A stretch of DNA of 32,000 bases from Candidatus Woesearchaeota archaeon (lineage in GTDB: Archaea; Nanobdellota; Nanobdellia; Woesearchaeales; ARS49): contig JAGVZE010000017.1 in the NCBI GenBank assembly GCA_018302815.1, forward strand, positions 1,783 to 33,782. Reading direction: 5' to 3'. Shown here one piece after another: positions 1,220-28,726 of this stretch (the first letter of the stretch is position 1; each line of letters starts with the position of its first letter). The notes beneath the pieces were generated by a model. The model had not been told where the DNA came from. It searched no databases and saw nothing but the letters and a program-made list of their open reading frames with translations. Both the position numbers and the translations under genes were made by a program.

Positions 1220-1712
1220 GCGCATTAAGATCGTTCTCTATTTTTTCAGGATTAGAATTCTTCGTCCAGCCAAGACGGTAAGATGTCCTGATAACGTGAG
1301 TGTCCACTACAACTCCGTCAACAATATTAAACGCGTTGGTCAGAATAACGATGGCTGTCTTTCTTCCAATGCCCGGCAAATCTATTAGTTCATCAATTGT
1401 TTTTGGAACTTTACCATTGTGCTTTTCAACGAGAAGTTTACATGCAGCGATGATATTCTTCGCCTTGTTGCCAGCGAAAGTAACTTTGCTAACGTATTTT
1501 AGCAAATCATCAACTGACGCTTTCGTGTAATCACTTGCAGTCTTATAGTGGTTGAACAATTCTTTCGTACACTCATTCACAACCTCATCACGCACTTGCG
1601 CCGAAAGGATAGCTGCCACCATCAAATCCAACGAAGTCTTGAAGTCAAGATAGTATTTGGCATTTGGGTACGTCTTCTTCAGTAGCTTTAGAATAACAAG
1701 GGGGCCGTTCAT
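1077..1712 (-). CDS. nth: Endonuclease III (DNA glycosylase/AP lyase)
   Basis: Helix-hairpin-helix LIDLPGIGRKTA and a C-terminal 4Fe-4S loop with C-x6-C-x2-C-x5-C spacing (CRAPVPVCSSCAIANFC). Confidence 0.9.
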   Translation of the reverse strand: MNGPLVILKLLKKTYPNAKYYLDFKTSLDLMVAAILSAQVRDEVVNECTKELFNHYKTASDYTKASVDDLLKYVSKVTFAGNKAKNIIAACKLLVEKHNGKVPKTIDELIDLPGIGRKTAIVILTNAFNIVDGVVVDTHVIRTSYRLGWTKNSNPEKIENDLNALIPKDWWKQTQWLLKAHGRAVCRAPVPVCSSCAIANFCPKAGVEKSN

Positions 1713-1897
1713 ACTGAAAGTACTCCTTGTCTTTTGAGAGTTTCAAGAGCACGTGTTATTTGGATAATTGGCAAATGCGTTTCAACGTATACATCTATCG
1801 CGTCTATCTCATACTTTCCTTGCGCTTTGCGTTTTTGGATAGATTTTTTTACAATTTCACGCATAGACGCATCGCTTACTTGTGTGATTTGAATCAT
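1709..1897 (-). CDS. Small hypothetical protein (62 aa), possibly wHTH-like, translationally coupled to nth
   Basis: ATG start. Its TGA stop overlaps the nth ATG (ATGA). No recognisable motif. Confidence 0.5.
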   Translation of the reverse strand: MIQITQVSDASMREIVKKSIQKRKAQGKYEIDAIDVYVETHLPIIQITRALETLKRQGVLSV

Positions 1898-2032
1898 TTG
1901 TAATGCCCTGATTATGATGTGATTTTTCTCTTAATAAACTCTTTGAAGAAAAAGTTGGAAAGTCTACGAATACTCGTTCACTGGACATTCCTCCACGTGC
2001 CATTTTTAAATCACTCAATACGTTGCGGTGGT

Positions 2033-2794
2033 ATGGCTCGTTTATCGCCGTTATTGAAATTGAAACTATCTGAAAAACTACAACAAGGATGGTCAATAAA
2101 CAACCTTGCGCGGGAACTATCGCTTGCCAAATCAACAATATACTATTATTACCGAAAAATAAACGGCAAAAAATACCAAGAGCCAACTTTTATTTCTTCA
2201 AATTCTGAATTGGAAGGCGAAATCAACGGTATATTCGCAGGTGATGGAAGCCAACACTATAATCGGAAAAAGGGGTCTTATCAAGTAAATGTTCATTTTG
2301 GAATCAAAAATAAGCGGTATGCTGAATATGTTAAGCAACTCTTCGAGTCATTTTTTGGCAAGCCGTTTAGACTCAATTTAGATGGAGACAATAAGCTTCG
2401 ATTAAGAATTGAATCGCGGCGCATTTTTCGTTATTTTGAGCAGTATTTATCATATAATAGTAGGGTGAAGCACTGCACGGTTCAACTTAAGCCTGATTGT
2501 TCTGCACAATTCAAAATCGGTTTTTTGCGCGGATTCTTTGATACTGATGGATGTTTTTATCAAGACCCCGGCTGTAGAAGAATCAAGCTCTTTTATACAA
2601 CAACCTCTGAAGTTCTAGCACTTCAAATCAGAGCGTTAATTTCAGATCTTAATATTCAGAGTTCTCTTTACATTCGAACACCTGCTTATGAAAAACCAGT
2701 CTATATTGTCAACATTTTAAAAGAAGGCAGGAATAGATTTATAAAGGTAGTAAAACCGCTCAAAGCCCAGCGGGCAGGTAATTCAGCCCGGTAG
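2033..2794 (+). CDS. Free-standing double-motif LAGLIDADG homing endonuclease with N-terminal HTH
   Basis: Two LAGLIDADG motifs (INGIFAGDGS and GFLRGFFDTDGCF) and an N-terminal HTH-like WSINNLARELSLAKSTIYYYY. The ATG at 2033 is preferred over the track start at 1919 because TTTTTAAAT at 2003-2011 lies about 22 nt upstream. Confidence 0.8.
   Translation: MARLSPLLKLKLSEKLQQGWSINNLARELSLAKSTIYYYYRKINGKKYQEPTFISSNSELEGEINGIFAGDGSQHYNRKKGSYQVNVHFGIKNKRYAEYVKQLFESFFGKPFRLNLDGDNKLRLRIESRRIFRYFEQYLSYNSRVKHCTVQLKPDCSAQFKIGFLRGFFDTDGCFYQDPGCRRIKLFYTTTSEVLALQIRALISDLNIQSSLYIRTPAYEKPVYIVNILKEGRNRFIKVVKPLKAQRAGNSAR
2738..2745 (+). promoter_or_regulatory. TATA box of tRNA-Ala, embedded in the LAGLIDADG ORF
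   Basis: TTTATAAA ends 27 nt upstream of tRNA position 1 (2772), which is typical archaeal spacing. Confidence 0.55.
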
Positions 2795-2845
2795 AATGCT
2801 CGGCTGGCAGCCGAGATGCCGGGGGTTCAAATCCCCCCCTGTCCA
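2772..2845 (+). tRNA. tRNA-Ala (anticodon GGC), no encoded CCA
   Basis: Manual cloverleaf: acceptor GGGCAGG/CCTGTCC with the G3:U70 alanine identity pair, D stem ATTC/GAAT, anticodon stem CTCGG/CCGAG with loop CTGGCAG, 5-nt variable loop, T arm GGGGG-TTCAAAT-CCCCC, discriminator A. Confidence 0.85.
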
Positions 2846-6288: not shown

Positions 6289-8874
6289 TTACGGCCGTGG
6301 AAGACTCTTCGCCAAAGAAGGCTTGTAAAATCTTAGCAGCAAACTATTCGAGACAACGCTAACGCTCGAAAGCGACATCGCGATGCCTGCAAGCAATGGA
6401 TTAAGAAGAGTGCCTGTGAAAGGATAAATCGCACCAGCTGCCACAGGAATCAAGATAATATTGTACGCGAACGCCCAGAACAAATTCTGCTTTATTTTGC
6501 GCATGGTCTTTGCGCTCAATTCAATCGCGGTCACAACATCACGCACATCACTTTTCATCAACACGACATCACCAGATTCTATAGCAATGTCAGTTCCTGA
6601 CCCAATCGCAATGCCAACATCCGCTTGGCTAAGCGCAGGAGCGTCATTGACACCATCACCAACCATCGCGACCTTTTTGCCACGCTCCTGAAGCTGCTTT
6701 ACTCTTGAAGCTTTCTCACCCGGAAGAACGTTCGCCAGCACATCATCAATACCTGCCTCTTTAGCTACCGCCCTTGCCACGCGCTCATTATCGCCGGTAA
6801 TCAACATAACCTTCTTGCCAAGCCTGTGAAGCTCCTCAACTGTTTCCTTCGCGAAAGGCTTCAACTGGTCCGCTACCGCGATAATGCCAAGAAGCTGTTT
6901 TGAAGTCGCAAGATACACCACAGTCTTTCCCTGAAGCTCAAGGTCCTGCACTTTTTGTTCGATGCTTTCAACATCAATCTTTTCACCCGACATTAGCCTG
7001 CGATTTCCAAGCAACAAATTCTTGCCCTTGTAGCTAGCCTGCACGCCCTGGCCTGTGATAGACTTGAAATGAATCGCCTCAGGAATCGCTATTTTACGCG
7101 CCTTCGCAGCATTAAGAATAGCCTCAGCAAGAGGATGCTCGCTCTTGCGCTCAAGAATCGCCGCAAGCTGCAAAAGACCTTCCGCAGAAGACTTGCCCAC
7201 AGGGACAATATCGGTTACCTCTGGCTCTCCTTTAGTCAAAGTTCCTGTTTTATCGAATAAGACAACCTTTATGTCCCTTGTTTCCTGCAAACTCTTCGCG
7301 TTTTTGAACAAAATACCATTCTGCGCCCCCTTGCCGCTGCCAACCATCACCGCAGTCGGCGTTGCAAGCCCAAGCGCGCACGGACACGCAATTATAAGAA
7401 CCGCAACAAAACTCGTGAACGCAAGCGCCCAATCGCCAAACGTCCACCAAGAAACAAAACTCGCAACCGCTATCAAGATAACCGCGGGAACAAAATAATA
7501 CGAAACTTTGTCCGCAACTTCCTCGATTGGCGCCTTAGAACCCTGCGCTTCCTCAACAAGCCTCACTATTTGAGCAAGAGCCGTGTCTTTTCCAACCTTT
7601 GAAGCGCGCATATAGAATGAGCCAGTCTTGTTCACAGTTCCGCCGATAACAGCGCTTCCCTTCACCTTCTCAACAGGAAGACTCTCACCAGTAATCATGC
7701 TCTCATCAACCGAACTTAAACCATCAGTCACAACACCATCAGTTGGAATCCTCTTTCCCGGAGACACCAGCAGAATATCTCCAACTTGAACTTCATCAAG
7801 AGATATCTCTTGCGTGAACACTTCATCGCCGCGTTTGCCCGTAACTCTTAGCGCAGTCGTAGGCTGAAGGCTCAACAATTTACGAATAGCATCGCTCGCC
7901 TTACCCCTAGCTATAGCCTCAAGCAATTTGCCAAGCAAAATGAACGCCACGATAAGACCCGCGATCTCAAAATAAAGCATTTCCATCGTGTAGCCTTCTT
8001 TGCCAACCATCAACATCACGAACACAAACGCGCTGTACAAATACGCAGCTCCAGTACCAACCGCCACAAGACTATCCATATTCGGCACCCTGTTGATAAG
8101 AAGAGCGCGAAGACCTTTAGTGTAAAATTCAAAACCTGCAATGATAATTGGAGTTGCCAGCAACAATTGCAGCAAAGCGCTCGTTGTCATCGACAATTCA
8201 GGAAGCGGAAGCCCAGCCATGTGGCCCATCGCGAGATAAAGAAGAGGAACGCCAAAAACTGCCGCAATAGACACGCGCTTGCCCCAATGCGCAACCTCAG
8301 AATGCACCTTCGTGTCAGCCACGGTTGCGCCATAACCCGCATTCTTGACAGCAGCAATGAGGCTATCAACATTTCCTCCCTTGACTCTTGCTTTGGATGT
8401 CGCAAGATTAACCTTGACTTCTGAAACACCCTCAACTTTTCTGAGCGCGCCTTCCACAATCATCTGACAATGCGCGCTATCCATCCCTGAAATCTCAAGA
8501 GTGACAACACCAGACTCTAACTGCGTTTGCGCGTTTATCGTCTCATGAGACTCAGTCTTATAGCCTGACTTTTCTATCGCCTCGCGCAAAAGTTTCTCTG
8601 ACACAAGCTTTGGGTCATAATCAACAAACGCCTTTGATGCAGCAAAATTCACGCTGGCAGATTTCACACCCGCGATTTTTTTCAACGCAGTCTCAATCGT
8701 TCTTACGCAGTTAGCGCAGCGCATATTAGAAATGACAATGATAGCTTTGCTCACATCTTCAAATTTAGCCTTGCACTCCGCGCTGCAGAAATAGTAGGTC
8801 TGCGACCTGCCTTCAATCTTGAACTTCGCAGTTACCGGATTCACTTCCATGCCACACGAAGGGTCTTTAACCAT
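6289..8874 (-). CDS. copA: Copper-translocating P1B-type ATPase with N-terminal TRASH/YHS-like domain and two HMA domains
   Basis: DPSCGMEV...CSAEC (TRASH/YHS-like), HMA1 with CANC, HMA2 with a degenerate SAHC, TGES, CPC ([11 protein letters not shown]), [15 protein letters not shown]. Confidence 0.95.
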
Positions 8875-8964: not shown

Positions 8965-10047
8965 TCAAGCAGTCCTGCTCAACTTTCTAAGATGCATGAA
9001 CGTTTGGATATGCTCAATTGTGCTCTTGCTCGCGCCAGCGGATTTGTTCTTATCCTCATACATCAAGTCATCAGCTCTCTTTGCGATAGCGTCGAACTCC
9101 TGCGCATACTGCGGTTCATTCCAGCCCCGCAACTCTTCAGGCAAGCGAGCATAAAATAATGAGTGCCCAACATTAATCCTGAATCGAATGAATTCATCTT
9201 CCGGTTCGAACACCTTGAACCCATCAGGTTTCAAAGCAGAAGGGTCATAAAAAGGATTCCGGATCCTGATAGCGTCAACTTTCTCTTTAATCTTATCTTC
9301 CATTGATTTTGCCGCATCTTCATTCGATAAGTAATGAGCGACAGTCACGAACTCCTCTCCGCCAGCGCGGTACACCGGGTCTTTATCCCGAATCGCGGAC
9401 TTAATCGCCTTACCAACTTCCTTTAAAACCAAATCCCCGAACGGATGGCCGAACGTGTCGTTTATGCGCTTGAACTTACGCATGTCCATAAAGAAAATCG
9501 CGGAATATTTCCCTTGCGCGTAATCCTGCGCCGCCTGTTTCACGTGAACATGCTTTTGAGCGACGTATTCGGCCTGCGAATAAACGCCTATCTCTTTACT
9601 GAACAATCCATCATATTTTGCGGTATCCTTCGCGCGCTGCAATTCGCGCCTATCAATCTTATGCCTTCGCGTCGCGGTACAGTGCTTTTCCTGGACTGTT
9701 CGCAATTGATACCTGAGCCCTGACTCGTCTTCACGAAGCAGCCTTTTTAGATCATCATACTTAATATTGCGTGCCGCAATAATCGGAACCGGAATCGCAA
9801 GAGTTTGCCCATCAATATAGTTATTCCAGAATTCGTCGTCTGAAGCAAATTCATTCTGACAAACGATGATTTTGCGTTCATTTTCAATAGAAACATACGT
9901 GTATAAGAACGGCCCCTTATCATCCACTCTAAACGGAAGAAAATCTTTTGAGCCTATTGTGTAACATAACGCTTCAAGCGAAGGCAAGTCAATCTTATGG
10001 CACTGCGCTTCTCCTTTCGGTTCCAATGTCCAGACTTCGAGACTCAC
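8965..10047 (-). CDS. GGDEF-domain protein (putative diguanylate cyclase) with an unrecognised 180-aa N-terminal domain
   Basis: FFMDMRKFKRINDTFGHPFGDLVLKEVG, RDKD-PVYRA-GGEEF (I-site RxxD five residues before an intact GGEEF; 9349-9390), KRADDLMYEDKN. GTG start. Confidence 0.85.
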   Translation of the reverse strand: MSLEVWTLEPKGEAQCHKIDLPSLEALCYTIGSKDFLPFRVDDKGPFLYTYVSIENERKIIVCQNEFASDDEFWNNYIDGQTLAIPVPIIAARNIKYDDLKRLLREDESGLRYQLRTVQEKHCTATRRHKIDRRELQRAKDTAKYDGLFSKEIGVYSQAEYVAQKHVHVKQAAQDYAQGKYSAIFFMDMRKFKRINDTFGHPFGDLVLKEVGKAIKSAIRDKDPVYRAGGEEFVTVAHYLSNEDAAKSMEDKIKEKVDAIRIRNPFYDPSALKPDGFKVFEPEDEFIRFRINVGHSLFYARLPEELRGWNEPQYAQEFDAIAKRADDLMYEDKNKSAGASKSTIEHIQTFMHLRKLSRTA

Positions 10048-10241: not shown

Positions 10242-11165
10242 ATGTATATTGACGCACTCATATTCATACTCGGCTGCGCCGCGCTCGTCAAAGCATCAGA
10301 ATACGCTGTAGAATCCATCGCTCATATCGCAAGAGCGTTTCGTATGACTGAATTCGTCACCAGCTTCATATTGGTGGCACTAATATCCGCACTCCCTGAA
10401 ACATTCATCAGCGTATTTTCCGCGCTAGAAGGAGACCCAAGCCTTGGCCTTGGAACTTTGCTCGGAAGCAACATCGCGGACTTGACATTAATATTAGGAC
10501 TTGTCGCGCTAGCGGGTCATCCTATCAGGATACAGAGCCACATAATCCAAAAAGACCTATACTTCGCAGCATTGACAATGCTTCCCATTATCTTGGGATT
10601 AGATGGGTTCTTAACACGGCTCGATGCGGTAATATTGCTGGTAGCAGGAACTTCTTTCATTTTCATCCTGCTCGAAGAGAGCATGTATTTTAGGAAACCA
10701 TACAACGATGGAAACCATTTCTACAAACAACTCGCGATATTCTTCTGCGCAGTCATAGTGCTGTTAGTTAGCGCGAACTTCATAGTTTCAAGCGCGGAAT
10801 CCCTTGCGATAGGCCTTGGCATTCCAACAGTCATGATAGGACTATTCCTAATAGCCCTTGGCACGACCCTTCCTGAATTCATTTTCAGCCTTCATAGCAT
10901 CAAAAAAGGGCACGCAGAACTTGCCATCGGCGACATATTGGGAGTCGTAGTTGTCGATGCGACACTTATCATCGGCATCACAGCGCTGGTCATGCCAATC
11001 GCAATCAACACATTCTTACTCTCGATGATAGGAATGTTCACCGCTTTCGCAGTCGTGTTCGCACTGCTGTTCATGCGTTCAGATGGAGTCCTAACAAAGA
11101 ACGAAGGAATGGCGCTGGTCTTGTTTTACGTCGCGTTTGTTGTCGTACAAATGTTAGTTGCGTGA
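10242..11165 (+). CDS. CaCA family cation/Ca2+ exchanger (YrbG-like)
   Basis: Two alpha-repeats, ALPETFISVF...GSNIADLTLILG and GTTLPEFIFSL...GDILGVVVVDATLIIG. About 10 TM segments. Confidence 0.85.
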   Translation: MYIDALIFILGCAALVKASEYAVESIAHIARAFRMTEFVTSFILVALISALPETFISVFSALEGDPSLGLGTLLGSNIADLTLILGLVALAGHPIRIQSHIIQKDLYFAALTMLPIILGLDGFLTRLDAVILLVAGTSFIFILLEESMYFRKPYNDGNHFYKQLAIFFCAVIVLLVSANFIVSSAESLAIGLGIPTVMIGLFLIALGTTLPEFIFSLHSIKKGHAELAIGDILGVVVVDATLIIGITALVMPIAINTFLLSMIGMFTAFAVVFALLFMRSDGVLTKNEGMALVLFYVAFVVVQMLVA

Positions 11166-12251
11166 CCAGAAAGAAATACCATTAGGCGCAACGCCAACAT
11201 GAATTGTCGCTAATACTGCGTCATTCTCAATCATTGAAACAGTATTGTCAAGAACATTTGTTACCCAAACTTTTCCATTCGGCGAAACCACAACACCGTG
11301 CGGAGCCGAACCAGACTCAATAGTGTCCACTCTTTCTCCCGATGAAACTGATACTTTGAAGACATTTGTTCCGACTGGCTTTCCCAATAAATTGCCCTGA
11401 TCTGCAACATAAATAAAGTTTCCATCAACTGAAGGGTAGAGTTGAACGGGCCCGGCATTGCCAAGCTTGAAACGGTCAAGCTTCCCTGATTTTACGTCAT
11501 ATCTTGCAAGCTCGTCCTTGTCAAAAACGGAAACGAAAACATAATCGCCGATTATCGCGGATTGCATGAGCATTCCAGAAACGTTCACACTTTTTATCGC
11601 ATTCGTATTCAAATCAACAATCAAAAGATTACCATCCATGCTGGCAATCGCGGCGAACCCATCGCCAAGCCTAAGACCATGAGGAGCAGAACCTTTCGGA
11701 AGACTTATCGAGGACACGCTCCAATCGGCAAAGCTTATTTTGAACAATTCATCAGTGTTGGTAGCGGTTATGTACGCAAATTTACCATCAGACACAACGT
11801 GAGCTAAATGAGCGCCAACACCAAGGTCAATGCGCTCCAATATGTCGTGGCTCTTCGCGTCGATTACGACCAACTGATCAAAATGCTCAGACGATTCTTC
11901 ATCGCCGTGAGCTGATGCCATAACCATTCCACTTGGCAAATTTGAGATGATGCCTGACAAGTCAGTATGACTGTTAGCTTCTGACTCTGCCTCTTCATGA
12001 GAACCTTCCTCGTGCTCATCGCCCGAGCCAGAATTCGAAGTCACTAAAACAAGATCACCTGACACTTGAACATTATGCGGAGCGTAATAAACCATCTCGC
12101 CATCATGCTCTGCTGCAAGCTTGACACGCTCGATTTCTACAAGTTTAACCGCATCGATAACACTAATAGAGCCGCCTTCCTCATTTGCCACAAAAATCTT
12201 TTCTGATACCGGTGAACAAGCGATTAGAAGTAATAGCAATAATCGTTTCAT
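11154..12251 (-). CDS. YVTN-type beta-propeller lipoprotein with His/Asp/Glu-rich insert
   Basis: Signal/lipobox MKRLLLLLLIAC. Repeats such as APHGVVVSPNGKVWVTNVLDNTVSMI and GVAPNGISF. Insert SGSGDEHEEGSHEEAESEANSH...HGDEESSEH. The track N-terminus (12252-12419) runs through tRNA-derived sequence and is discarded. TATA lies about 25 nt upstream of ATG 12251. Confidence 0.75.
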   Translation of the reverse strand: MKRLLLLLLIACSPVSEKIFVANEEGGSISVIDAVKLVEIERVKLAAEHDGEMVYYAPHNVQVSGDLVLVTSNSGSGDEHEEGSHEEAESEANSHTDLSGIISNLPSGMVMASAHGDEESSEHFDQLVVIDAKSHDILERIDLGVGAHLAHVVSDGKFAYITATNTDELFKISFADWSVSSISLPKGSAPHGLRLGDGFAAIASMDGNLLIVDLNTNAIKSVNVSGMLMQSAIIGDYVFVSVFDKDELARYDVKSGKLDRFKLGNAGPVQLYPSVDGNFIYVADQGNLLGKPVGTNVFKVSVSSGERVDTIESGSAPHGVVVSPNGKVWVTNVLDNTVSMIENDAVLATIHVGVAPNGISFWSRN

Positions 12252-12294
12252 AACTGCCAGAATCAGCCAGAACTTTAAAAAAGCTTTGGAACAA

Positions 12295-12411
12295 TGGCGC
12301 CGGCAGGTCTGAAAAACCCTGAGGGTTTTCCAGCCCATCAAAACCTGCTGTTTTGAGGATTCGAACTCTCGACACTTCGCTTGCGCTCGTGTCGGAAGTT
12401 CAAATCCTGCG
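12295..12411 (-). other. Orphan tRNA-Leu 3' segment E1: T arm plus 3' acceptor strand interrupted by about 40-nt and 51-nt inserts
   Basis: On the minus strand: CGCAGG [39-40 nt] GTTCGAAT [51 nt] CCTGCCGGCGCCA. The matching pieces are 12406-12411, 12359-12366 and 12295-12307. The first insert plus the T loop forms a 19-bp hairpin. The second insert contains the hairpin GAAAACCC-TCA-GGGTTTTTC. Confidence 0.6.
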
Positions 12412-12451
12412 TTGAACAATAAGTAGAATACGCTCTGCGTTAGCAGTGTTA

Positions 12452-12540
12452 TGGCGCCGGCAGGATTCGAACCTCAAACCAACTGCTGTTGGCTGGAGCT
12501 TCGAACCTGCGTGACTAGTCCTGTGAAGACACTTCGTGTT
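12452..12540 (-). other. Orphan tRNA-Leu 3' segment E2: variable arm to 3' end, with 14-nt and 34-nt inserts
   Basis: The 23 nt at 12452-12474 are identical to 12550-12572 of the intact gene. There is a 34-nt insert in the T loop (12475-12508, flanked by duplicated TTCGAACCT) and a 14-nt insert (12511-12524). GTGTCTTC matches the variable arm. No 5' acceptor strand is present. Confidence 0.6.
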
Positions 12541-12549
12541 GAAAACTTA

Positions 12550-12633
12550 TGGCGCCGGCAGGATTCGAACCTGCGAAGACACTAAGTCAGAGGATCTTAA
12601 GTCCCCCGCATTTGGCCGCTTTGCTACGGCGCC
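12550..12633 (-). tRNA. tRNA-Leu (anticodon UAA), type II, intron-less, no encoded CCA
   Basis: Manual fold: acceptor GGCGCCG/CGGCGCC, 3-bp D stem with loop AAGCGGCCAAA (archaeal Leu-like), anticodon stem GGGGA/TCCTC with loop CTTAAGA, 15-nt variable arm TGACTTAGTGTCTTC, T arm GCAGG-TTCGAAT-CCTGC, discriminator A. Confidence 0.85.
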
Positions 12634-12654
12634 GTAAGAGGAAAGCAAACGTGA

Positions 12655-12666
12655 CAATATTTAAAA
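12655..12666 (-). promoter_or_regulatory. TATA box of the intact tRNA-Leu
   Basis: Minus-strand TTTTAAATATTG ends about 22-24 nt upstream of tRNA position 1 (12633). Confidence 0.5.
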
Positions 12667-12687
12667 CTGCGCATCAGAACAGGCAAA

Positions 12688-12776
12688 TCTTAAGTCCCCG
12701 CATCTCAAAGAAGCCGTGCTTGTTTGAGAGCCAGAAATCCATAGATTTCTTGATTTGGCCGCTTTGCTACGGCGCC
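12688..12776 (-). other. tRNA-Leu 5' half X: acceptor to anticodon loop, with a 50-nt insert in the D loop, one G missing before the anticodon stem, and no contiguous 3' half
   Basis: 12754-12776 is identical (23 nt) to 12611-12633. The 50-nt insert (12704-12753) forms two hairpins. 12688-12703 reads ATGCGGGGACTTAAGA (anticodon loop CTTAAGA) and then diverges into the promoter of the next gene. Confidence 0.6.
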
Positions 12777-12973
12777 GCAAGACGAACTTTCAAACATCGG
12801 AAATCTTTTGCGCGGAATCCACTTGCTTTAGCTCGTGTGAGGCGCGCAAGGATTTCCGAGTGCGCTCAAGAACCACGCGTCACGTTTACTTGGCGTTATC
12901 ATTCCACGCCACCTTGCTTTAGCAGGTGGTTCTTGACAAGACGGTATTTAAATTTACTCCTATTTGACCATAT

Positions 12974-15514: not shown

Positions 15515-16039
15515 TCAGAATCTGAACCCAAAACCAAACAAAAACAAATGCGAATCAATGCCCCTGTTAGGACTATCTCTTGTTCCACCGTGCGAAATGT
15601 GCATATATCTATAGCCCAGCTGAAGAAATACGCCATCATCTTGAATCCTCGCGCCAAAACCGCCCTGGTCTAAAAAGTTGAAACCCGCGTGCCCCTGCTC
15701 TCTTGTTCGCATATCAAGATAACCAGGGCCAGCTCCAGCCTCCGCGTAAACGCTAACATTGCCAAACGGATACTCATATCTTCCCATCGGAGTCGCCCCG
15801 CGCATAGAACCGCGTTCATCGCCATGAAATTCATAATCAAACGCCTCCACCGATAAGTGGAGATTGCCATGATTTTCATCAAGTCCAATATACTCGTTGA
15901 CATCCTTGCCGATACGCACGCTGAAAGGAGTTATTTCCTGATCGTTGAACCTGCCATATCCTGTCGAGACTCCCATCTCTAAACCAGAACAACCAGCGAG
16001 CGAAACGGCCAACACGGAGCCTAGGAGTTTATTCAGCAC
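15515..16039 (-). CDS. PagL-like acyloxyacyl hydrolase beta-barrel with lipobox signal
   Basis: C-terminal LQLGYRYMHISHGGTRDSPNRGIDSHLFLFGFGFRF (H-x-S catalytic-type motif, aromatic C-terminus). Signal LNKLLGSVLAVSLAGC. The GTG at 16039 is chosen because TTTATATA is centred about 27 nt upstream. Confidence 0.6.
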   Translation of the reverse strand: MLNKLLGSVLAVSLAGCSGLEMGVSTGYGRFNDQEITPFSVRIGKDVNEYIGLDENHGNLHLSVEAFDYEFHGDERGSMRGATPMGRYEYPFGNVSVYAEAGAGPGYLDMRTREQGHAGFNFLDQGGFGARIQDDGVFLQLGYRYMHISHGGTRDSPNRGIDSHLFLFGFGFRF

Positions 16040-16148
16040 TAAAATTCTTACGCTTCCAGAAGTATATAAATCTGAAGACACATTTTTTTCGAACTTTACT
16101 TCACATGCGTCGCAACATTCATAAATGCGCACGCGCTTGACAACACAC

Positions 16149-17177
16149 ATGCTTTCAAAGCTCTCGCACACTTTGTGCGCACTTGTTCTATCCGGATGCG
16201 GAGCGTTAACTTACCACACACCACAAGACCCTATGTACCGCGGACCCACTCCGCTTGACCGTTCAATTGAGGAAAGATTCAGGTACAAAGACGACGATGG
16301 CATCGCGCCCATCACAACGTTAGTTCGAAGCGAGAACAGGCTGCTTTATACCCTTGAAACGAGTACGTTCTCTCATTATGATGAAGCTTCACAAAAAGAT
16401 AGGCAGGTCACGTTCGAACACTACAGAACACGCCTTCGCGAAAACGCGCCGCTTGTTCTTGTAGCGCCAATACTTGGCGGAAAATACGCGATAGAAAGAC
16501 CGCTATGCGAAACACTTGCCGAGAATGGAATCTCGGCTGTGTTAGTGCACAGGCCAAAACACATGCTAAGATTCGCAGAGTTTGATAATTTAGAAACTTT
16601 CCTGCGCTCAATAGTTTCAGATAGACGATGCGTGCTTGACGCGCTTGATTGCGAATACGACCAAATGGGAAGCATTGGAATCAGCATGGGCGCGATAACG
16701 AATGTGCCGCTGATAGCAGTTGAGCACAGACTGCAGTACAACATACTTGGAATGCCAGGGGCAAACATACCACTGATACTAATGACGTCAACCGAAGGAA
16801 GCTTGGAAGAATTCGTGGAAGAACACTCACGCGAACTATCCAAAAACGCGGATGAACTTTTAGAACACTTCAAAGAAGGATACGAATCAGACCCCGCGAA
16901 CCTTGCGCCATATATTGATGCCCGCAATACCAGAATGTTCCTTGCATTCTTCGATACAGTAGTTCCTTACGAACGCGGGCTTGAACTGCACGAAGCGCTA
17001 GGAAGGCCCGAACTCGACGTTTTGCCAACAGGCCATTATACCGCCGCGCTGTACTATTTTTGGATAAAAGATATGGCAGTAGAGTTCTTCCAAGAGCGAT
17101 TCGGCGTTGATTCTGATGCAGTAGAATCACGAAAAAACTCCATCCTTAGAAGACACGTCAGACGGCGGGTAAGCTGA
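16149..17177 (+). CDS. Alpha/beta-hydrolase fold lipoprotein
   Basis: Lipobox ALVLSGC and nucleophile elbow GISMG. ATG 16149 is preferred over the track start at 16125. Confidence 0.65.
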   Translation: MLSKLSHTLCALVLSGCGALTYHTPQDPMYRGPTPLDRSIEERFRYKDDDGIAPITTLVRSENRLLYTLETSTFSHYDEASQKDRQVTFEHYRTRLRENAPLVLVAPILGGKYAIERPLCETLAENGISAVLVHRPKHMLRFAEFDNLETFLRSIVSDRRCVLDALDCEYDQMGSIGISMGAITNVPLIAVEHRLQYNILGMPGANIPLILMTSTEGSLEEFVEEHSRELSKNADELLEHFKEGYESDPANLAPYIDARNTRMFLAFFDTVVPYERGLELHEALGRPELDVLPTGHYTAALYYFWIKDMAVEFFQERFGVDSDAVESRKNSILRRHVRRRVS

Positions 17178-23399: not shown

Positions 23400-24869
23400 C
23401 TACTTGGCAATCTTTTGAAGCGCCTCAAGAATCTCAACCATCCCTTCAGTATCCCGCCCGCAATACTTTAACAGGTCTTCTCTTGCCTTTTTCACGTCCT
23501 TAGTGTTTAGTGTGTTGTTTAGGAGTGCGATAAACGCACGGGTGGCCGCTCCGCCTTCTGCGATGCCGAGTCCTTCGTAACCTTTTCCCGTCATTGAGGG
23601 CAGGACTTCTTTGATGGAGTAGCTTCCGTGTTGGTTGGGGTGGTAGTACCAGAACTCTCTGAATGGCGTTGCGAGATCATCCATTCGGTCAATTATTTGA
23701 GTTATCCATTTAGCGTCTTTTGGGAACGCTTCTGCCAAATCGTGCAGGACGCGTTTCTCAAAACTGGCGTTGAACGCCAAAACGCTCCCCTCCTTTGGCA
23801 ATTGTTTCAAACCCTCAAGAAACTCCTTGCGCGGGTCACCTTTGCCATCCGCAAGCACTTCAATATGCTTAACCTTGCCATTCTCTATAACGTGCGCTGA
23901 GAACTGGAACGGCACTTGCTGATACGGCCAAGTTCCAATAAAGAGAGGGACACCAGGATTTATCGTTTCAAAGTCAAGGCACGTGAGCGGTTCCTTGAAC
24001 GCCTTGAGAAAGTTCTTTATCGCTTTGACTTCAATGTGCGGCTTGCCCTTCTCAACCGCATCAATTTGAATTTGCTGCTTAGAACCCAATTTTACGTCAG
24101 ACGGAATGTTCTCAAAGGTGGTAATTCCTTGGTTGATGAGCGGCCAAGCTTTCTTTCCAAAATAATACAGTTCGGCAAGTTCAATCCCTTCTAAATCAGG
24201 AGCGCATACTGGGCAGTCCTTAGGCTCTTTGCACTCAGAACCGTACTTTGGCTTGGGACACTTGCCCTTAACGATTTCAAGCATACCTTCAATATTACCC
24301 TCAACTTCTTCTGACTTTGTAACTGCATCTTCAGTCACGTCGTGCTTTGCCAAAAACTCCTTAAGCTCTAGCTTTCCATCAAAAACATACTCATTATTGA
24401 CAACCATCAAATAGACCTTATGCAGTTTAACCCCTGCGCCAGTTAAGCAATAATACTGGAAGCCAACATCCTCCAAGTGCTCATCCTTGACTTCTGTTGA
24501 ACTCTTGACTTCAATAAGCACCCACTCATCCTTACCGTGAGGAATCAACAGGTCAGCCTTGCAATACGCATGCTTATACGCGAACGTGGCCTCAAAAAGC
24601 GGCTTACGCTCCCTCAAAAGCTCCTGAGTCGTCTTTACCGATGAACCGTCACGTTTCACTTCAAAACCATCCGGATAAAGCTGCTTGGCTAAAGCTCCAA
24701 CCTCATGACCCGCATCAAACCTTGCCTGCGTAGCAGCATCAACAGGCGGAATCCTCTCAGGAGCGTTAATTTTAAGCCAAAGAAGCTTAGGACAGGAAAG
24801 ACCGGAGGTGTAGTTGGATTTGGAGAGGGTACTTTTGCTGTTCATATGGCGTCTCAAAATATAATTCAA
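23400..24869 (-). CDS. Cas4-like PD-(D/E)XK/4Fe-4S nuclease fused to a DEDD-type exonuclease-like domain (DUF2779-type architecture)
   Basis: N-terminus: SCPKLLWL, D...IEVK, QYY, and the Cys cluster C-x9-C-x5-C-x2-C. C-terminus: LDFET (DxE), FNASFEKRVL, YCGRDTEGM. The family name is from memory of Pfam DUF2779. Confidence 0.75.
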   Translation of the reverse strand: MNYILRRHMNSKSTLSKSNYTSGLSCPKLLWLKINAPERIPPVDAATQARFDAGHEVGALAKQLYPDGFEVKRDGSSVKTTQELLRERKPLFEATFAYKHAYCKADLLIPHGKDEWVLIEVKSSTEVKDEHLEDVGFQYYCLTGAGVKLHKVYLMVVNNEYVFDGKLELKEFLAKHDVTEDAVTKSEEVEGNIEGMLEIVKGKCPKPKYGSECKEPKDCPVCAPDLEGIELAELYYFGKKAWPLINQGITTFENIPSDVKLGSKQQIQIDAVEKGKPHIEVKAIKNFLKAFKEPLTCLDFETINPGVPLFIGTWPYQQVPFQFSAHVIENGKVKHIEVLADGKGDPRKEFLEGLKQLPKEGSVLAFNASFEKRVLHDLAEAFPKDAKWITQIIDRMDDLATPFREFWYYHPNQHGSYSIKEVLPSMTGKGYEGLGIAEGGAATRAFIALLNNTLNTKDVKKAREDLLKYCGRDTEGMVEILEALQKIAK

Positions 24870-24871
24870 AT

Positions 24872-25861
24872 TTATTTCCAGAGTTCACTTATTTTTTTAG
24901 CCTTAAGCAATTTGGATAATTTCGTAAATCTTGGAGATTGCGGCGCCATTCCTTTTACGCCTTTATCCAACTCTATCGGGCTGACTGTTTTCTTATTTTT
25001 CAAATACAAGATGAATTTTCCTGAATCTTTATACGTGTCGATTCGTTCTATTTCGGCATAATTTCTTATCGCTGCAACTGGCGATTTTTCATACATTGCT
25101 AGATATCTTATTTGTTCGCGAGCCCTTTGTGATAGTCTGATTGCCCACCATGCATTCTTTTCAACGTATGCATGTTTAAACCCGTCTTCAAATGCCGGAC
25201 ACACGATGGTATCGATCTCTTCAATATCTGACTCTTTAGACTTTGTTTTTTTACCGTCGAATTCCTGCAATTCTTCTCTCATGGGTTCGTAAAAGTATGC
25301 AATATCTGTCTTGTTTACGTATCGTTTCAGTGTGACAACGTCAGGTCGTTCTCTAAATACGTCAAGTGCGTCATTCAGATCGGTGGTGGCTTCATCAATT
25401 ACCAAAACAATCTTTATCTTATTTTCAGTTAGAAAAATCATTAACTCATCAATATTCTTAAAATCAGTATTTTTAAGATATTTCTCTATTTCTTTAGAAA
25501 GTGCAGTATTTGATTTAATAACTTCAAGCAATTTAGTTCTAATTTGATTCTGAGACGTTCTTGTGATAGTTGTGAATCTTACCAACTGCTCAGAAATATG
25601 GTTGTAAACATCATGTGTTGACAACTCATTCTCAACAAAATACAGTCGAGGCTGCTTATTACTCGTAAAATCAATCAAATACCCATCAGGCACGCCTTTG
25701 TTATATGATTCAGACTTTCCAAAGCGCTTCTTAATATCAATATAAACAACATCGTTTCCGAACAAATATTTGCAATTTTCAATAACTGCCTTCTCAAACA
25801 CTTCTTCAGTCTCAAAATCCAGTAAACTGTATTTCTTCCCGCTGATAAGAATGTTAGTCAT
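24872..25861 (-). CDS. PD-(D/E)XK-like nuclease-fold protein with uncharacterised C-terminal domain (329 aa)
   Basis: VPDGYLIDF...LYFVENELSTHD...ISEQLVRF (D / ExE / QxxxF pattern). The C-terminal YLAMYEKSPVAAIRNYAEIERID...GKFILYL is a recurring module I cannot name. Its stop lies 2 nt before the downstream ATG, so the genes are coupled. TATA lies about 28 nt upstream of the ATG. Confidence 0.6.
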   Translation of the reverse strand: MTNILISGKKYSLLDFETEEVFEKAVIENCKYLFGNDVVYIDIKKRFGKSESYNKGVPDGYLIDFTSNKQPRLYFVENELSTHDVYNHISEQLVRFTTITRTSQNQIRTKLLEVIKSNTALSKEIEKYLKNTDFKNIDELMIFLTENKIKIVLVIDEATTDLNDALDVFRERPDVVTLKRYVNKTDIAYFYEPMREELQEFDGKKTKSKESDIEEIDTIVCPAFEDGFKHAYVEKNAWWAIRLSQRAREQIRYLAMYEKSPVAAIRNYAEIERIDTYKDSGKFILYLKNKKTVSPIELDKGVKGMAPQSPRFTKLSKLLKAKKISELWK

Positions 25862-25999
25862 GCTTTATCACTGGGAAGAGAGGGATATAAATGTTTTGTA
25901 GTGTTGTGTGCAATGCTACTGGAGGGATATCCTAATTTAAAGAATGGCAGTATTCTAATAGTTAACTGATTTTAGGTAGAAATACATAAAAAGGACTGG

Positions 26000-28726
26000 G
26001 TGAACCATTCAGATATGGACATTGTTGCTGCGCGTCAAGCCCTTCAAAAACTGGTTGATGAGTATAATAAGAAATTCAAAGATGATAAAAGTCTTCTGAG
26101 TAATGAAAAACAGATTTGTGCGAGTTTAATCCTTCCGCTTGTTGAAGCAGTTCTTCATTGGAATACTAAAGATGTTTCAGAATTTAGACTTGAAGAACAA
26201 AGAGCAGGAAAACGTCCTGACTATCTGGTCTATTATCAAGGCATGACGCAATTCATTGTTGAAGCGAAAGCCGCTACGAAAGATTTGTTCGAAGATGAAG
26301 CAGCATTAACGCAAGCACTTGAGTATGGATATAATGCGGATAAAGAATTCGTTATTTTAACAAATTTTAGACAAATTGTAATTTTAGCCCCTAAAATACA
26401 GTATCGGAATGTGCATGAAGCAGCTATTGCACGAATCAATCTTTTAACTGTAAGTGATGATGACTTGAAAACGTTATTGTGTTTTGAACGAGAATACTGG
26501 ATTTCAGCAGCTAAAGATAATCTTCTTTATTCAAAACTCGTTCATCATAAAAAATCTGTTCCTGTTGATGATCGCCTTTTGGATGATATGAAAAATTGGC
26601 GAGAAATGTTACTCACCAATATTCAAAAGAAAAATCTTAAATTAAATTTTGATGATGAACAGGACTTTGCAGAAATTGAGAAAGAAGTTCAAAAAATAAT
26701 AGATAGGTTGGTTTTCATTTGTTGTTGTGAAGATAAAGGAATTCACCATGAGCCAACTTTAAAACGATTGCTTAATGAGAAACAGACTCGTTATTCGATG
26801 ACTCTGGGCTGGTTATTGGAATCTATTCATGGACTTTTCGCAAAATATCGAAAAGTGCCTGATAGCGATCTTTTTGATATGAGTCCGGCTGATAAATACA
26901 TAATCGAAGATACAAAACTAATGGACTTATTGACTGATCTACGCGAACCGAAAGGCCGACCAGCATACAATTTTGATGAAATCGATGAAGACATTCTTGG
27001 CAAAGTTTATGAAAATTTTATCGGGCATGTTCAGACTGGAAAGAAGCGCTTCAAGGAAAAAGAAGATATTGGAAAACGAAAGAAGGAGGGCATTTATTAC
27101 ACGCCAAAATACATTGTTGAATACATAGTGAATAACACTGTTCGTGACTATATTAAAGGAAAATCATTTGAAGAAATTCTGAAAGTGAAAATTCTTGATC
27201 CCGCGTGCGGGTCGGGAAGCTTTCTTTTAAGGGCGTTTAATGTACTAATTGAAGAAGCTGCAAAAGCACTAAAACGGCCCTTGGAATATGCGGAGAAAAA
27301 GGACTTGCTTCTAAATTGTATATACGGAGTCGATCTTGATGAACGAGCCGTTGAGATTACCAAGTTAACATTTTCATTGAAACTGGCGCAGATTTCAGAA
27401 GGACTTCCAGTACTTGCGGATAATATTCGACACGGAAATAGTTTGATTGATGATAAAGAAGTGGCGGGCGATTATCTGGCGTTTAAATGGGAAGATGAGT
27501 TCAAGGAAATAATGACTGGTGGAGGGTTTAACATCGTGATTGGGAATCCGCCGTACGGTGTTGCATTCAAACTGGAGGAGAAAAAATATTTTGAACTGCA
27601 TTATTCATATGTGAAATCAGTTTATGAAAGTTATCGTTTATTTTTAGAGCGAGTCGCCGCGTTGGTTAAAGAAGAATCACTAGTTGGGTTAATTATACCA
27701 AACACTTGGTTTTATTTGACAAATGCACAACACATTAGAGTAGAACTGTTATCAAAATTTTCAATACTTAAATTAATTAACCTTCCTCAGAGCGTTTTTG
27801 AAGATGCAACTGTTGACACATGCATTATAATTTTTACGAAAAAGATCATCAATAACAATCAAATAGGGGCATATTTCTTCCCCCATAAAGATAAAATTAA
27901 CAATCTGAGCAATCTAAATTATGTGGCAGTCAAGCAAAAAGATTTGTTAGATTCTCCTGGAAGCGTAATTAATCTGAAACTGAATGTGGATGATGTTCAA
28001 TTAATTGCCAAGATAAAAAAACAACCAGTAGTCCTAAATGATTACGTTGAAATCATCACTGGTATTAAACCGTATCAAGTGGGCAAGGGAAACCCCTCGC
28101 AAACAAAAAGAATAGTTGACGAAAAACCATTTACTGCACTTACCAAATTAGATCAGACATTCAAGCCTTGGCTCACTGGTAAATTCATTTATCGATATGG
28201 CGTTTCCAAAAATAAAGAATATATTAGTTACGGAAAATGGCTTGCAGAGCCAAAAACGCCAAATATTTTTGAACGTGATAGAATTGTTCTGCAGCAAATC
28301 AGAAATCCTTCCTTACCTAGAAGAATTGTGGCAACATTCATTCGGGGTGGAATATACACGAACAACGGAATCCATAATTTACTTCCAAAAGATAAAGTTA
28401 AGACTTTTTGGATTCTTGGTATCCTTAATTCCAAATTAATGAATTTTTATTTTTCTGCTCACTATAATGATGTAAATATAAAACCCTCCAATCTCTATAA
28501 TTTACCTTATCCGATATATTCTTCTGAGTCAAAAATAAGTGAATTAGTGGGCAGGATTTTGGAGTTGAACGAAAAATTGAAGAACATTAAAGAAAAAAAT
28601 ACCGATGAAAGTAACAAGATACAAAATGAAATTCAAAAAATAGATGGGATGATTGATAACGAAGTTTTCAAGCTGTTTAACCTTTCTGATACGGAAATCA
28701 ATATAGTTCAACAGAATAACGTTTAA
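26000..28726 (+). CDS. Type IIG restriction-modification enzyme (MmeI/Eco57I-like fusion of endonuclease, gamma-class N6-adenine methyltransferase and TRD)
   Basis: N-terminal nuclease RPDYLVY...FIVEAK, motif I ILDPACGSGSFLL, motif IV VIGNPPYG, and a long C-terminal specificity region. GTG 26000 or ATG 26015. Confidence 0.9.
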   Translation: MNHSDMDIVAARQALQKLVDEYNKKFKDDKSLLSNEKQICASLILPLVEAVLHWNTKDVSEFRLEEQRAGKRPDYLVYYQGMTQFIVEAKAATKDLFEDEAALTQALEYGYNADKEFVILTNFRQIVILAPKIQYRNVHEAAIARINLLTVSDDDLKTLLCFEREYWISAAKDNLLYSKLVHHKKSVPVDDRLLDDMKNWREMLLTNIQKKNLKLNFDDEQDFAEIEKEVQKIIDRLVFICCCEDKGIHHEPTLKRLLNEKQTRYSMTLGWLLESIHGLFAKYRKVPDSDLFDMSPADKYIIEDTKLMDLLTDLREPKGRPAYNFDEIDEDILGKVYENFIGHVQTGKKRFKEKEDIGKRKKEGIYYTPKYIVEYIVNNTVRDYIKGKSFEEILKVKILDPACGSGSFLLRAFNVLIEEAAKALKRPLEYAEKKDLLLNCIYGVDLDERAVEITKLTFSLKLAQISEGLPVLADNIRHGNSLIDDKEVAGDYLAFKWEDEFKEIMTGGGFNIVIGNPPYGVAFKLEEKKYFELHYSYVKSVYESYRLFLERVAALVKEESLVGLIIPNTWFYLTNAQHIRVELLSKFSILKLINLPQSVFEDATVDTCIIIFTKKIINNNQIGAYFFPHKDKINNLSNLNYVAVKQKDLLDSPGSVINLKLNVDDVQLIAKIKKQPVVLNDYVEIITGIKPYQVGKGNPSQTKRIVDEKPFTALTKLDQTFKPWLTGKFIYRYGVSKNKEYISYGKWLAEPKTPNIFERDRIVLQQIRNPSLPRRIVATFIRGGIYTNNGIHNLLPKDKVKTFWILGILNSKLMNFYFSAHYNDVNIKPSNLYNLPYPIYSSESKISELVGRILELNEKLKNIKEKNTDESNKIQNEIQKIDGMIDNEVFKLFNLSDTEINIVQQNNV

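Follow-up and report, generated by a model that had tools for sequence, protein, structure and literature searches.

The tRNA-Leu(UAA) locus of a Candidatus Woesearchaeota genome lies within a 32,000-nucleotide (nt) stretch of DNA, hereafter the window, whose coordinates are used throughout. Read on the minus strand, the locus presents a 5' partial copy of the transfer RNA (tRNA) gene (X), the intact gene, and two 3' partial copies (E2 and E1). An earlier note on this DNA had described these four tRNA-Leu-related elements, and direct reading confirmed each of them at its coordinates, together with the imbalance of two 5' acceptor strands against three 3' acceptor strands. The explanation we favour, with somewhat better than even confidence, is that the locus holds one functional tRNA-Leu(UAA) gene and three partial copies which are not tRNAs and which originated when the ends of the gene were duplicated locally. 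The fragments are not exons, whether of a split or of a multi-intron tRNA. E2 and E1 represent a unit, termed E, that lies directly behind tRNA-Leu(UAA) in five Woesearchaeota lineages (the window, L013, L023, L037 and L039).

Architecture of the tRNA-Leu(UAA) locus

The functional tRNA-Leu(UAA) gene of the locus is the copy at 12633-12550 (Table 1). As the earlier note had it, this gene is intact and free of introns; it is called by ARAGORN and scores 57.7 bits against Rfam RF00005. It is the sole tRNA that ARAGORN (including its intron mode) and Rfam (including permissive E-value thresholds) found in the region. The tRNA sequence is identical in L013, and also in L073 up to the point in the T-loop where that contig ends. 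Orthologues of the gene occupy the same neighbourhood in 12 other lineages, and an intact tRNA-Leu(UAA) gene is present in every lineage. Its promoter is archaeal in type, with a TATA box and no sigma-70 site. Because the TATA box stands 23-25 nt before position +1 in every related lineage, with a similar promoter sequence, the comparison suggests that tRNA-Leu is transcribed without a leader. On direct reading, none of X, E2 and E1 has a TATA box at promoter distance.

Table 1. Features of the tRNA-Leu(UAA) locus, in window coordinates
Feature	Position	Strand	Description
Structured stretch	12790-12935	-	146 nt, between a 121-residue open reading frame (ORF) and X; fold z = -5.0; membership of the locus uncertain
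X, 5' partial duplicate	12687-12786	-	about 10 nt of 5' flank and two tRNA segments around an insert
TATA box of the intact gene	12657-12666	-	TTTTAAATAT; 23 nt upstream of tRNA +1, read directly
Intact tRNA-Leu(UAA)	12550-12633	-	84 nt, intron-less, CCA not encoded; ARAGORN call
E2, proximal E unit	12452-12549	-	spacer, arm, one hairpin and tail
E1, distal E unit	12295-12451	-	spacer, arm, hairpins and tail
T-run/TATA-like element	12274-12285	-	GCTTTTTTAAAG; immediately after the E1 tail, read directly

X opens with an exact copy of gene nt 1-24 (12776-12753), and the match between gene and X reaches about 10 nt into the 5' flank, giving 34 nt at 94% identity (repeat family D2). An insert of 51 nt in the D loop (12752-12702) folds into two hairpins and includes a hairpin of a type built from an A-run, a loop and a T-run. 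The remainder, 12701-12687, equals gene nt 25-40 minus one G and has the anticodon of the intact copy. The identity at the 5' end, the two-hairpin D-loop insert, the missing G and the shared anticodon were all part of the earlier description and stand, with the sizes refined from 23 identical nt and a 50-nt insert. The 3' end of X passes straight into the promoter of the intact gene, and X carries what appears to be a degenerate, shortened copy of that promoter. No X was seen in the nearest relatives with data, L013 and L073, and no copy of the 5' end stands upstream of tRNA-Leu in the other lineages surveyed. Because X is absent from L013 and L073, its promoter is degenerate and it has suffered a 1-nt deletion, X appears to be a recent, lineage-specific and decaying upstream duplicate of the promoter and 5' half of the gene, with no function.

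Behind the intact gene, E2 consists of a 39-nt spacer that includes a variable-arm fragment (AGTGTCTTC), an arm (GCAGGTTCGAA), the hairpin CCAAC-AGCA-GTTGG, and a tail (12474-12452) that is an exact 23-nt copy of the tRNA 3' end; its folding energy gives z = -3.85 relative to shuffled sequences. E1 is larger and more strongly folded (z = -6.94). Its 41-nt spacer, 71% identical to the spacer of the L013 E, is followed by an arm, GCAGGATTTGAAC (12410-12398), that repeats the T-loop and the 3' strand of the T-stem in inverted form, then by an extra hairpin (12397-12367), the segment GTTCGAATCCT (12366-12356), a two-hairpin core of 48 nt (12355-12308) and the tail CCTGCCGGCGCCA (12307-12295). The 19-bp hairpin previously noticed in E1 was recovered in this fold. 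All of the fragments, X included, are much more stably folded than shuffled controls. Within 1.2 kb, exact repeats as long as 23-24 nt greatly exceed chance expectation.

The earlier note took E2 and E1 for separate 3' tRNA segments broken by inserts. The 3' tRNA parts are real, but the fragments are better described as tandem copies of one unit than as tRNA pieces with random inserts. Each of them aligns with the single E of L013: E1 has the start of the spacer (TAACACTGCNAAC), an ATTCT...TCAAC stretch and the arm in common with it, and E2 has the GAAGTGTCTT stretch and the spacing of arm, hairpin and tail. Because both align with the L013 E, E2 and E1 are best read as tandem paralogues of one unit of about 100-157 nt made up of spacer, arm, hairpin or hairpins, and tail. 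Hairpin 1 of the E1 core, CAAAAC-AGCA-GGTTTTG, corresponds to CGAAAACC-GC-GGTTTTCG of L037, and the 48-nt "insert" of E1 is an ancestral two-hairpin core that occurs in relatives as well.

The E element in related lineages

Across the five lineages that carry it, E has the same order of parts: a spacer (11-41 nt) comes first, then an arm, then a single hairpin or a pair, and last a tail. The arm, GCAGGATTYGAA(C), is the reverse complement of the T-loop and the 3' T-stem strand; the tail reproduces exactly the final 13-23 nt of the tRNA beside it; and one of the hairpins carries an A-run and a T-run. Most of the comparative loci were reached through homologues of the Na_Ca_ex antiporter and of the beta-propeller protein encoded beside the locus (12 further lineages), while L013 came from an exact-pattern scan of GTDB species genomes with the 22-nt tail and L019 from a metagenome scan with the same tail. 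Literature searches found no description of E.

In seven lineages (L019, L025, L029, L024, L035, L032 and L033) E is missing. The sequence 3' of the tRNA in E-less L019 matches the sequence 3' of the E tail in L037, and E is therefore an indel bounded exactly by direct repeats. The E-bearing lineages are scattered over two clades of the antiporter tree, a distribution that fits an old element with several losses. That E derives from the duplicated 3' half of the tRNA is part of our overall explanation, and we hold it with the same slight preference. In L073, the closest relative of the window (antiporter identity 83%), the contig region 1-243 contains the identical tRNA in the opposite orientation and no X, with a degenerate relic of the E tail (GAATCTTGGCCTGCTGGCGCC) at 126-146, facing the beta-propeller gene.

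The conservation of E was followed in a small sample of 3-5 lineages. Between L037 and L039, whose antiporters are 81% identical, the E arm and hairpin core are 92% identical and the tRNA 94%, against 62% for the 5' flank and 63% for the 3' flank of the tRNA, which is the level of random sequence. Every E core folds into two hairpins when cores are folded individually (the E of L013 has no core); the individual folds were used for all core structures, as the MAFFT alignment of three E cores prepared for RNAalifold was shifted. L023 differs from L037 and L039 by three compensatory double changes, two of them in hairpin 1 (A-U to G-C, U-A to C-G) and one in hairpin 2 (C-G to U-A), with no pair broken. 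E also changes together with the tRNA it follows. The acceptor stem of L039 reads GGCGCGG/CCGCGCC, and the same change is present in the L039 E tail; in four of the five lineages (L013, L023, L037 and L039) a T or C in the E arm matches the A or G of the adjacent T-loop, and in the window this pairing is a G.U wobble.

Because the core is conserved, its changes are compensatory and E co-varies with the tRNA, these comparisons indicate that E is constrained and not freely decaying. Conservation of the hairpin core suggests that it has been selected for some role, as a structure of the trailer, terminator or insulator kind. The alignment of relatives proposed in the earlier note thus gave a divided answer to its idea of decayed partial duplications: decay fits X and possibly E2, both absent from L013 and L073, but it does not fit E1 and the E family, which is present in five lineages.

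A pre-tRNA trailer subject to repeat recombination would account for these features. E would be transcribed only as the 3' trailer of pre-tRNA-Leu, because it lacks a separate promoter (neither E2 nor E1 is preceded by a TATA box), and it would fold independently into long hairpins and be cut off at maturation of the tRNA 3' end. Read-through would be stopped by the T6 run at 12283-12278 that follows the E1 tail; the GCTTTTTTAAAG element in which this run lies probably serves both as a read-through stop for the tRNA/E transcript and as the promoter of the beta-propeller gene (11154-12251, minus strand), the T-run doubling as its TATA box. The direct repeats of 16-23 nt formed by the tRNA 3' end and the E tail would recombine and so homogenise, delete or duplicate E, and E2 and E1 would have originated by unequal recombination between repeats of 22-23 nt. 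Such recombination would explain the precise loss of E elsewhere, the E2 and E1 tandem, and the identity maintained between tail and tRNA. Repeat recombination and co-transcription of E are the processes we infer as most likely. The core could serve as a terminator or insulator, assist folding, or act as a decoy.

Several points weigh against a selected role for E. The evidence comes from only five E-bearing lineages, and the identity of tail and tRNA could be explained by gene conversion alone, with no function involved. The E of L013 has no two-hairpin core, E looks plastic in the clade of the window, L073 keeps only its degenerate tail relic after inversion of the tRNA, and E1 and E2 may be decaying in this genome. 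T-runs are present in some E copies and not in all, which makes the terminator idea weak. In three of the four E cores, one strand forms the hairpins as well as the other; because the computed folding energies are strand-symmetric in this way, a role at the DNA level or an origin as a mobile element would be inseparable from a role at the RNA level on these grounds.

The combination of a fragment, hairpin filler and an intact gene recurs in relatives at tRNA-Thr and tRNA-Val, and hairpins of the A-run, loop and T-run type recur in the inserts there. A leader of about 108 nt precedes tRNA-Thr(GGU) in L019 (10020-10127, minus strand) and L023 (about 7880-7988, plus strand). It runs from a TATA box through a degenerate copy of the first 16 nt or so of the tRNA, three hairpins and a duplicated 5' flank to the intact gene, which has no TATA box of its own, and the hairpins of the two lineages differ by compensatory changes; in L025 tRNA-Thr(GGU) is a plain gene. 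Directly 3' of tRNA-Thr(GGU), a two-hairpin insert of about 52 nt is found in L023 (8075-8126), L033 (about 6619-6671) and L032 (5875-5927) and is absent in L019 and L025. Its hairpins are kept by compensatory changes and it ends in a copy of the last 6-7 nt of the tRNA (GAGGCT/GTGGCT), and it represents an E-like element at a second tRNA. At the tRNA-Val(GAC) locus of L032 (7609-7750, plus strand) the gene is preceded by a TATA box, by 13 nt that repeat its 5' end exactly, and by an insert of 55 nt in which an A-run/T-run hairpin occurs; in L019 and L025 tRNA-Val(GAC) is a plain gene.

Alternative explanations

One reading raised in the earlier note takes the three fragments for exons of a split or multi-intron tRNA-Leu, tri-split forms included; their joining would fall to the archaeal splicing endonuclease. 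We consider this very improbable. Woesearchaeota belong to the same larger group as Nanoarchaeum, a bearer of split tRNAs, and the inserts are structured. tRNA-Thr(GGU) of relatives has introns at the canonical position 37/38, of 74 nt in L013 (gene at 6916-7062, minus strand) and of 12 nt in L023 and L037; these archaea therefore splice tRNAs and the splicing endonuclease is present. The pieces, however, do not add up to a tRNA. X covers gene nt 1-40, E2 begins at nt 51 and E1 holds only nt 64-84, and since nt 41-50 (CCTCTGACTT, including the 3' anticodon-stem strand) are missing from all three, the fragments do not suffice for a complete tRNA. A joined X+E2 construct was not accepted as a tRNA by ARAGORN, and X after removal of its insert is one G short and has nothing past nt 40. 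Nor is there a processing signal where one would be needed. A purpose-written scanner for the strict hBHBh' bulge-helix-bulge (BHB) motif, with 3-nt bulges and a 4-bp central helix, returned 69 candidates over 12250-12960 against 60 +/- 9 in shuffled sequences, with none at the insert borders, where the insert ends lie inside long continuous hairpins in minimum free energy (MFE) folds. A relaxed BHB proposed earlier between CAAA and UUUG in the X insert has to compete with a much stronger local hairpin, of 7 bp, that takes up the UUUGAGA strand in the MFE fold. Two copies of UGCCGGCGCCA are able to form a minimal symmetric BHB, but this pairing of palindromic acceptor copies, the only one in register, has flanking helices of just 2 bp and does not persist in L039 with its altered acceptor sequence. 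No inverted repeat joins the 3' flank of X to the 5' flank of E2 or E1, and no in-register BHB candidate joins them, which agrees with the previously noted lack of leader/trailer complementarity. The absence of a promoter from X, its use of the same anticodon as the intact gene, and the presence of an intact gene in every lineage also speak against such a role, and because the GTTCR segment is absent from E of L023, L037 and L039, no excision there can rebuild the T-loop.

The specific forms of processing fail one by one on the same evidence. A split tRNA of the Nanoarchaeum type was rejected for want of a complete cloverleaf and a leader/trailer pair, with a promoter only before the intact gene, and a multi-intron tRNA of the Thermoproteales type was rejected as there is no border BHB and removal of the inserts does not restore a canonical tRNA. 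The order of 5' fragment, intact gene and 3' fragments rules out a permuted tRNA gene. A group I intron in tRNA-Leu(UAA), a transfer-messenger RNA and a tRNA-like element found no Rfam support, and inspection by eye of the X insert and of the tRNA-Thr leaders found no C/D boxes of a co-transcribed C/D-box small RNA (sRNA) such as occurs in Nanoarchaeum. The locus does resemble the split tRNAs of Nanoarchaeum equitans, the tri-split tRNAs of Caldivirga maquilingensis and the multi-intron tRNAs of Thermoproteales in having an archaeal host of a related superphylum, separate halves, and structured interruptions of the D- and T-loops. It differs from them in that the borders have no BHB, there is no leader/trailer pair, the pieces are incomplete and, in the case of X, E2 and E1, promoterless, and an intact gene with the same anticodon stands between them.

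A mosaic created by mis-assembly of repeated tRNA sequence in metagenomes is extremely improbable. The samples that contain the strain (those of L001-L010) are metagenomes of the Rifle aquifer, and eight same-strain contigs from other assemblies (L002, L003 and L005-L010) terminate inside the locus, within 12538-12909, several of them exactly at piece boundaries, namely the start of X and the start and end of the intact gene. These ends suggest either structural variants in the population or breaks in the assembly graph. Two independent assemblies, L001 (ENA) and L004 (JGI), nevertheless span the whole locus and are 100% identical end to end, which rules out an assembly artefact; the repeats are also no longer than 34 nt, and the same E architecture is found in related genomes from other studies.

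The earlier note also suggested remnants of attachment (att) sites. In the form considered here, X, E2 and E1 would be att scars of viruses or plasmids that integrated into tRNA-Leu by a tyrosine or SSV-type integrase, each element having restored the part of the tRNA it displaced and later shrunk to about 50-120 nt; in a variant, E itself would be a miniature non-autonomous cassette moved in trans. We regard this as the main rival but as unlikely, although the geometry of the locus speaks for it. Exact direct repeats of 16-24 nt, identical to part of the tRNA, flank the inserts, and the E indel, with its exact boundaries at 16-23-nt repeats of the tRNA 3' end and the match between the flanks of L037 and L019, has the classic arrangement of attL and attR. 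The inverted T-arm repeat of E resembles the core sites of recombinases, fragments with filler beside an intact gene occur at tRNA-Thr and tRNA-Val of relatives too, and the orientation of the tRNA-Leu module flips between lineages. The machinery and its cargo are what is missing. No Pfam integrase or recombinase domain was found among the genes called around the locus in 13 lineages, over 4-10 kb on each side of the query gene where the contig allowed, and the repeats are separated by 40-140 nt with no integrated element between them in any lineage. A search of IMG/VR with three patterns (the 22-nt tail, a 16-nt tail, and arm-gap-tail) yielded neither the tRNA-Leu 3' end nor the arm-plus-tail signature in any archaeal context; the matches were actinophage tRNA-Met genes, chance matches in coding sequence and one enterobacterial phage gene family. 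The att-remnant form of the decay idea thus received no direct support, either from a nearby integrase or from a virus-borne copy. With blastn-short, the inserts were not found repeated elsewhere in the window or in 10 related loci, a result that also led us to reject a high-copy miniature inverted-repeat transposable element as the origin of the hairpin inserts. D-loop breakpoints such as those of X and of tRNA-Val are not known as a usual integrase target, and we count this against att scars. E is moreover shared vertically, and its conservation between L037 and L039 at the level of the tRNA is unexpected for a dead scar.

Partial tRNA genes derived from integration are well documented in archaea, among them a 5' fragment of tRNA-Thr in Caldiarchaeum subterraneum (Sugahara et al. 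2012, PMC3293823) and partial tRNA genes in Thermococcaceae (van der Gulik et al. 2022, bioRxiv 10.1101/2022.07.05.498093), and in the documented cases 1.8-23 kb of element DNA with a recombinase lie between the copies (PMC3293823; bioRxiv 10.1101/2022.07.05.498093). Such scars and the tRNA-Leu locus have in common a complete gene with partial copies that share exact repeats, the occurrence of inversions, and fragments that are not functional tRNAs. In contrast to them, the copies considered here are 40-140 nt apart and none of the lineages showed a recombinase; the sequence between the copies is conserved and has compensatory changes, and the repeat tracks the tRNA.

A functional RNA is the remaining alternative for E. 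It would be a mimic of the tRNA 3' half released from the pre-tRNA trailer. Its target might be an enzyme with affinity for the 3' end or T-arm of tRNA-Leu, which it would decoy or regulate, or else the T-loop, with which it would pair as an antisense RNA. This we judge improbable. The tRNA-level conservation, the compensatory changes and the co-variation of tail and arm with the tRNA are in keeping with it; so is the window E1, where G.U pairs make the arm and core fold better on the sense strand (-19.8 kcal/mol, vs -14.4 kcal/mol antisense), and E. coli offers a precedent for a working tRNA-Leu trailer in 3'ETS-leuZ. When tRNA and E of L023 or L039 are folded together, the MFE structure has the T-loop of the tRNA bound to the E arm and its 5' acceptor strand bound to the E tail, but these alternative folds are a trivial consequence of duplication. 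Strand asymmetry is found in only one of the four cores, the internal architecture of E varies among clades, and E was lost in at least seven lineages without replacement. In a broader form, E would be a selected module that mimics and co-evolves with the tRNA 3' half, whether as a co-transcribed regulatory or decoy RNA or as a miniature cassette targeting the T-loop of tRNA-Leu, and the frequent half-gene duplicates beside tRNA-Leu, tRNA-Thr and tRNA-Val of Woesearchaeota would then be living intermediates of the process from which the split tRNA genes of their relative Nanoarchaeum came; we hold this only as a tentative and rather unlikely proposal. Local duplication around one working gene is the explanation we prefer to each of these.

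Neighbouring features and significance

The order Cu-ATPase, Na_Ca_ex antiporter, (beta-propeller protein) and tRNA-Leu(UAA) is kept across 12 related lineages. The antiporter of the window shows 100% identity to a protein listed by NCBI under Candidatus Woesearchaeota archaeon. The module of promoter and tRNA-Leu is co-directional with the antiporter gene in ten of the loci (L019, L023, L024, L025, L029, L031, L035, L037, L039 and L073) and inverted relative to it in L032, L033 and the window. The module has been inverted at least two times among the compared lineages, and since its orientation differs between them, the locus is prone to rearrangement.

Upstream of X, the structured 146-nt stretch shares the hairpin motifs GAAATC...GATTTC and GAGC-NAAA-GCAAG with the inserts of X and E1 (families D3 and I10). 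It folds into a 10-bp stem that encloses three hairpins and into a separate long hairpin; it has no match in Rfam and no homologue among the compared relatives. A TATA-like sequence, TTTAAATA, at 12952-12945 would start transcription within the first stem. L016 (about 1640-1726, plus strand) and L017 (112 to about 200, minus strand) contain a tRNA-like gene with a TATA box and the same 22-nt 3' end as tRNA-Leu. This gene is archaeal-looking, has an unusual body and is not called by ARAGORN, and it may be a non-canonical or intron-containing tRNA.

Other genes of the window are of separate interest. A GGDEF diguanylate cyclase (8965-10047, minus strand) and a PagL-like lipid A deacylase/outer-membrane beta-barrel (15515-16171, minus strand) are typically bacterial genes on an archaeal contig. 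Within 1919-2845 (plus strand), an ORF of 291 residues encodes a LAGLIDADG endonuclease (Pfam LAGLIDADG_3, E = 3e-18), and its end overlaps the start of tRNA-Ala(GGC) at 2772-2845, so that a free-standing homing endonuclease gene abuts a tRNA gene. The block at 23400-28726 has a low GC content (0.34-0.36, vs about 0.45 elsewhere) and encodes a 908-residue type IIG restriction-modification enzyme of the Eco57I/MmeI type, adjoined by a DUF2779/Cas4-like nuclease; it is probably a horizontally acquired defence island.

Two bacterial systems offer parallels to E. Downstream of the E. coli tyrT tRNA gene lie 178-bp repeats that carry 19 bp of the 3' end of tRNA-Tyr and that probably originate, and are kept uniform, through unequal recombination. 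Like E, these are short tandem units that follow a tRNA gene and terminate in its 3'-end sequence; unlike E, they are bacterial, have another unit structure and contain no inverted T-arm copy, and no cross-species conservation with co-variation is known for repeats of this type. E. coli 3'ETS-leuZ is an sRNA sponge made from a tRNA-Leu trailer, with no resemblance to the tRNA itself. Like it, E lies behind tRNA-Leu, would be co-transcribed with it, and might have a role after its removal.

Integration of mobile elements is known to leave partial tRNA genes beside complete ones, and these are usually set aside as scars. Here, scar-like pieces come without an element and recur at three tRNA genes in one archaeal order, and E matches the preceding tRNA in degree of conservation and tracks its changes. 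Should E prove functional or mobile, a new class of element associated with tRNA genes would have to be recognised. Such fragments can also mislead tRNA annotation and break metagenome assemblies. The main value of the locus is as a natural example of how tRNA half-genes originate next to intact genes. Promoter-bearing 5' halves and free 3' halves arise readily beside intact genes in the close relatives of Nanoarchaeum, and this bears on the debate over whether the split tRNAs of Nanoarchaeum are ancestral or derived.

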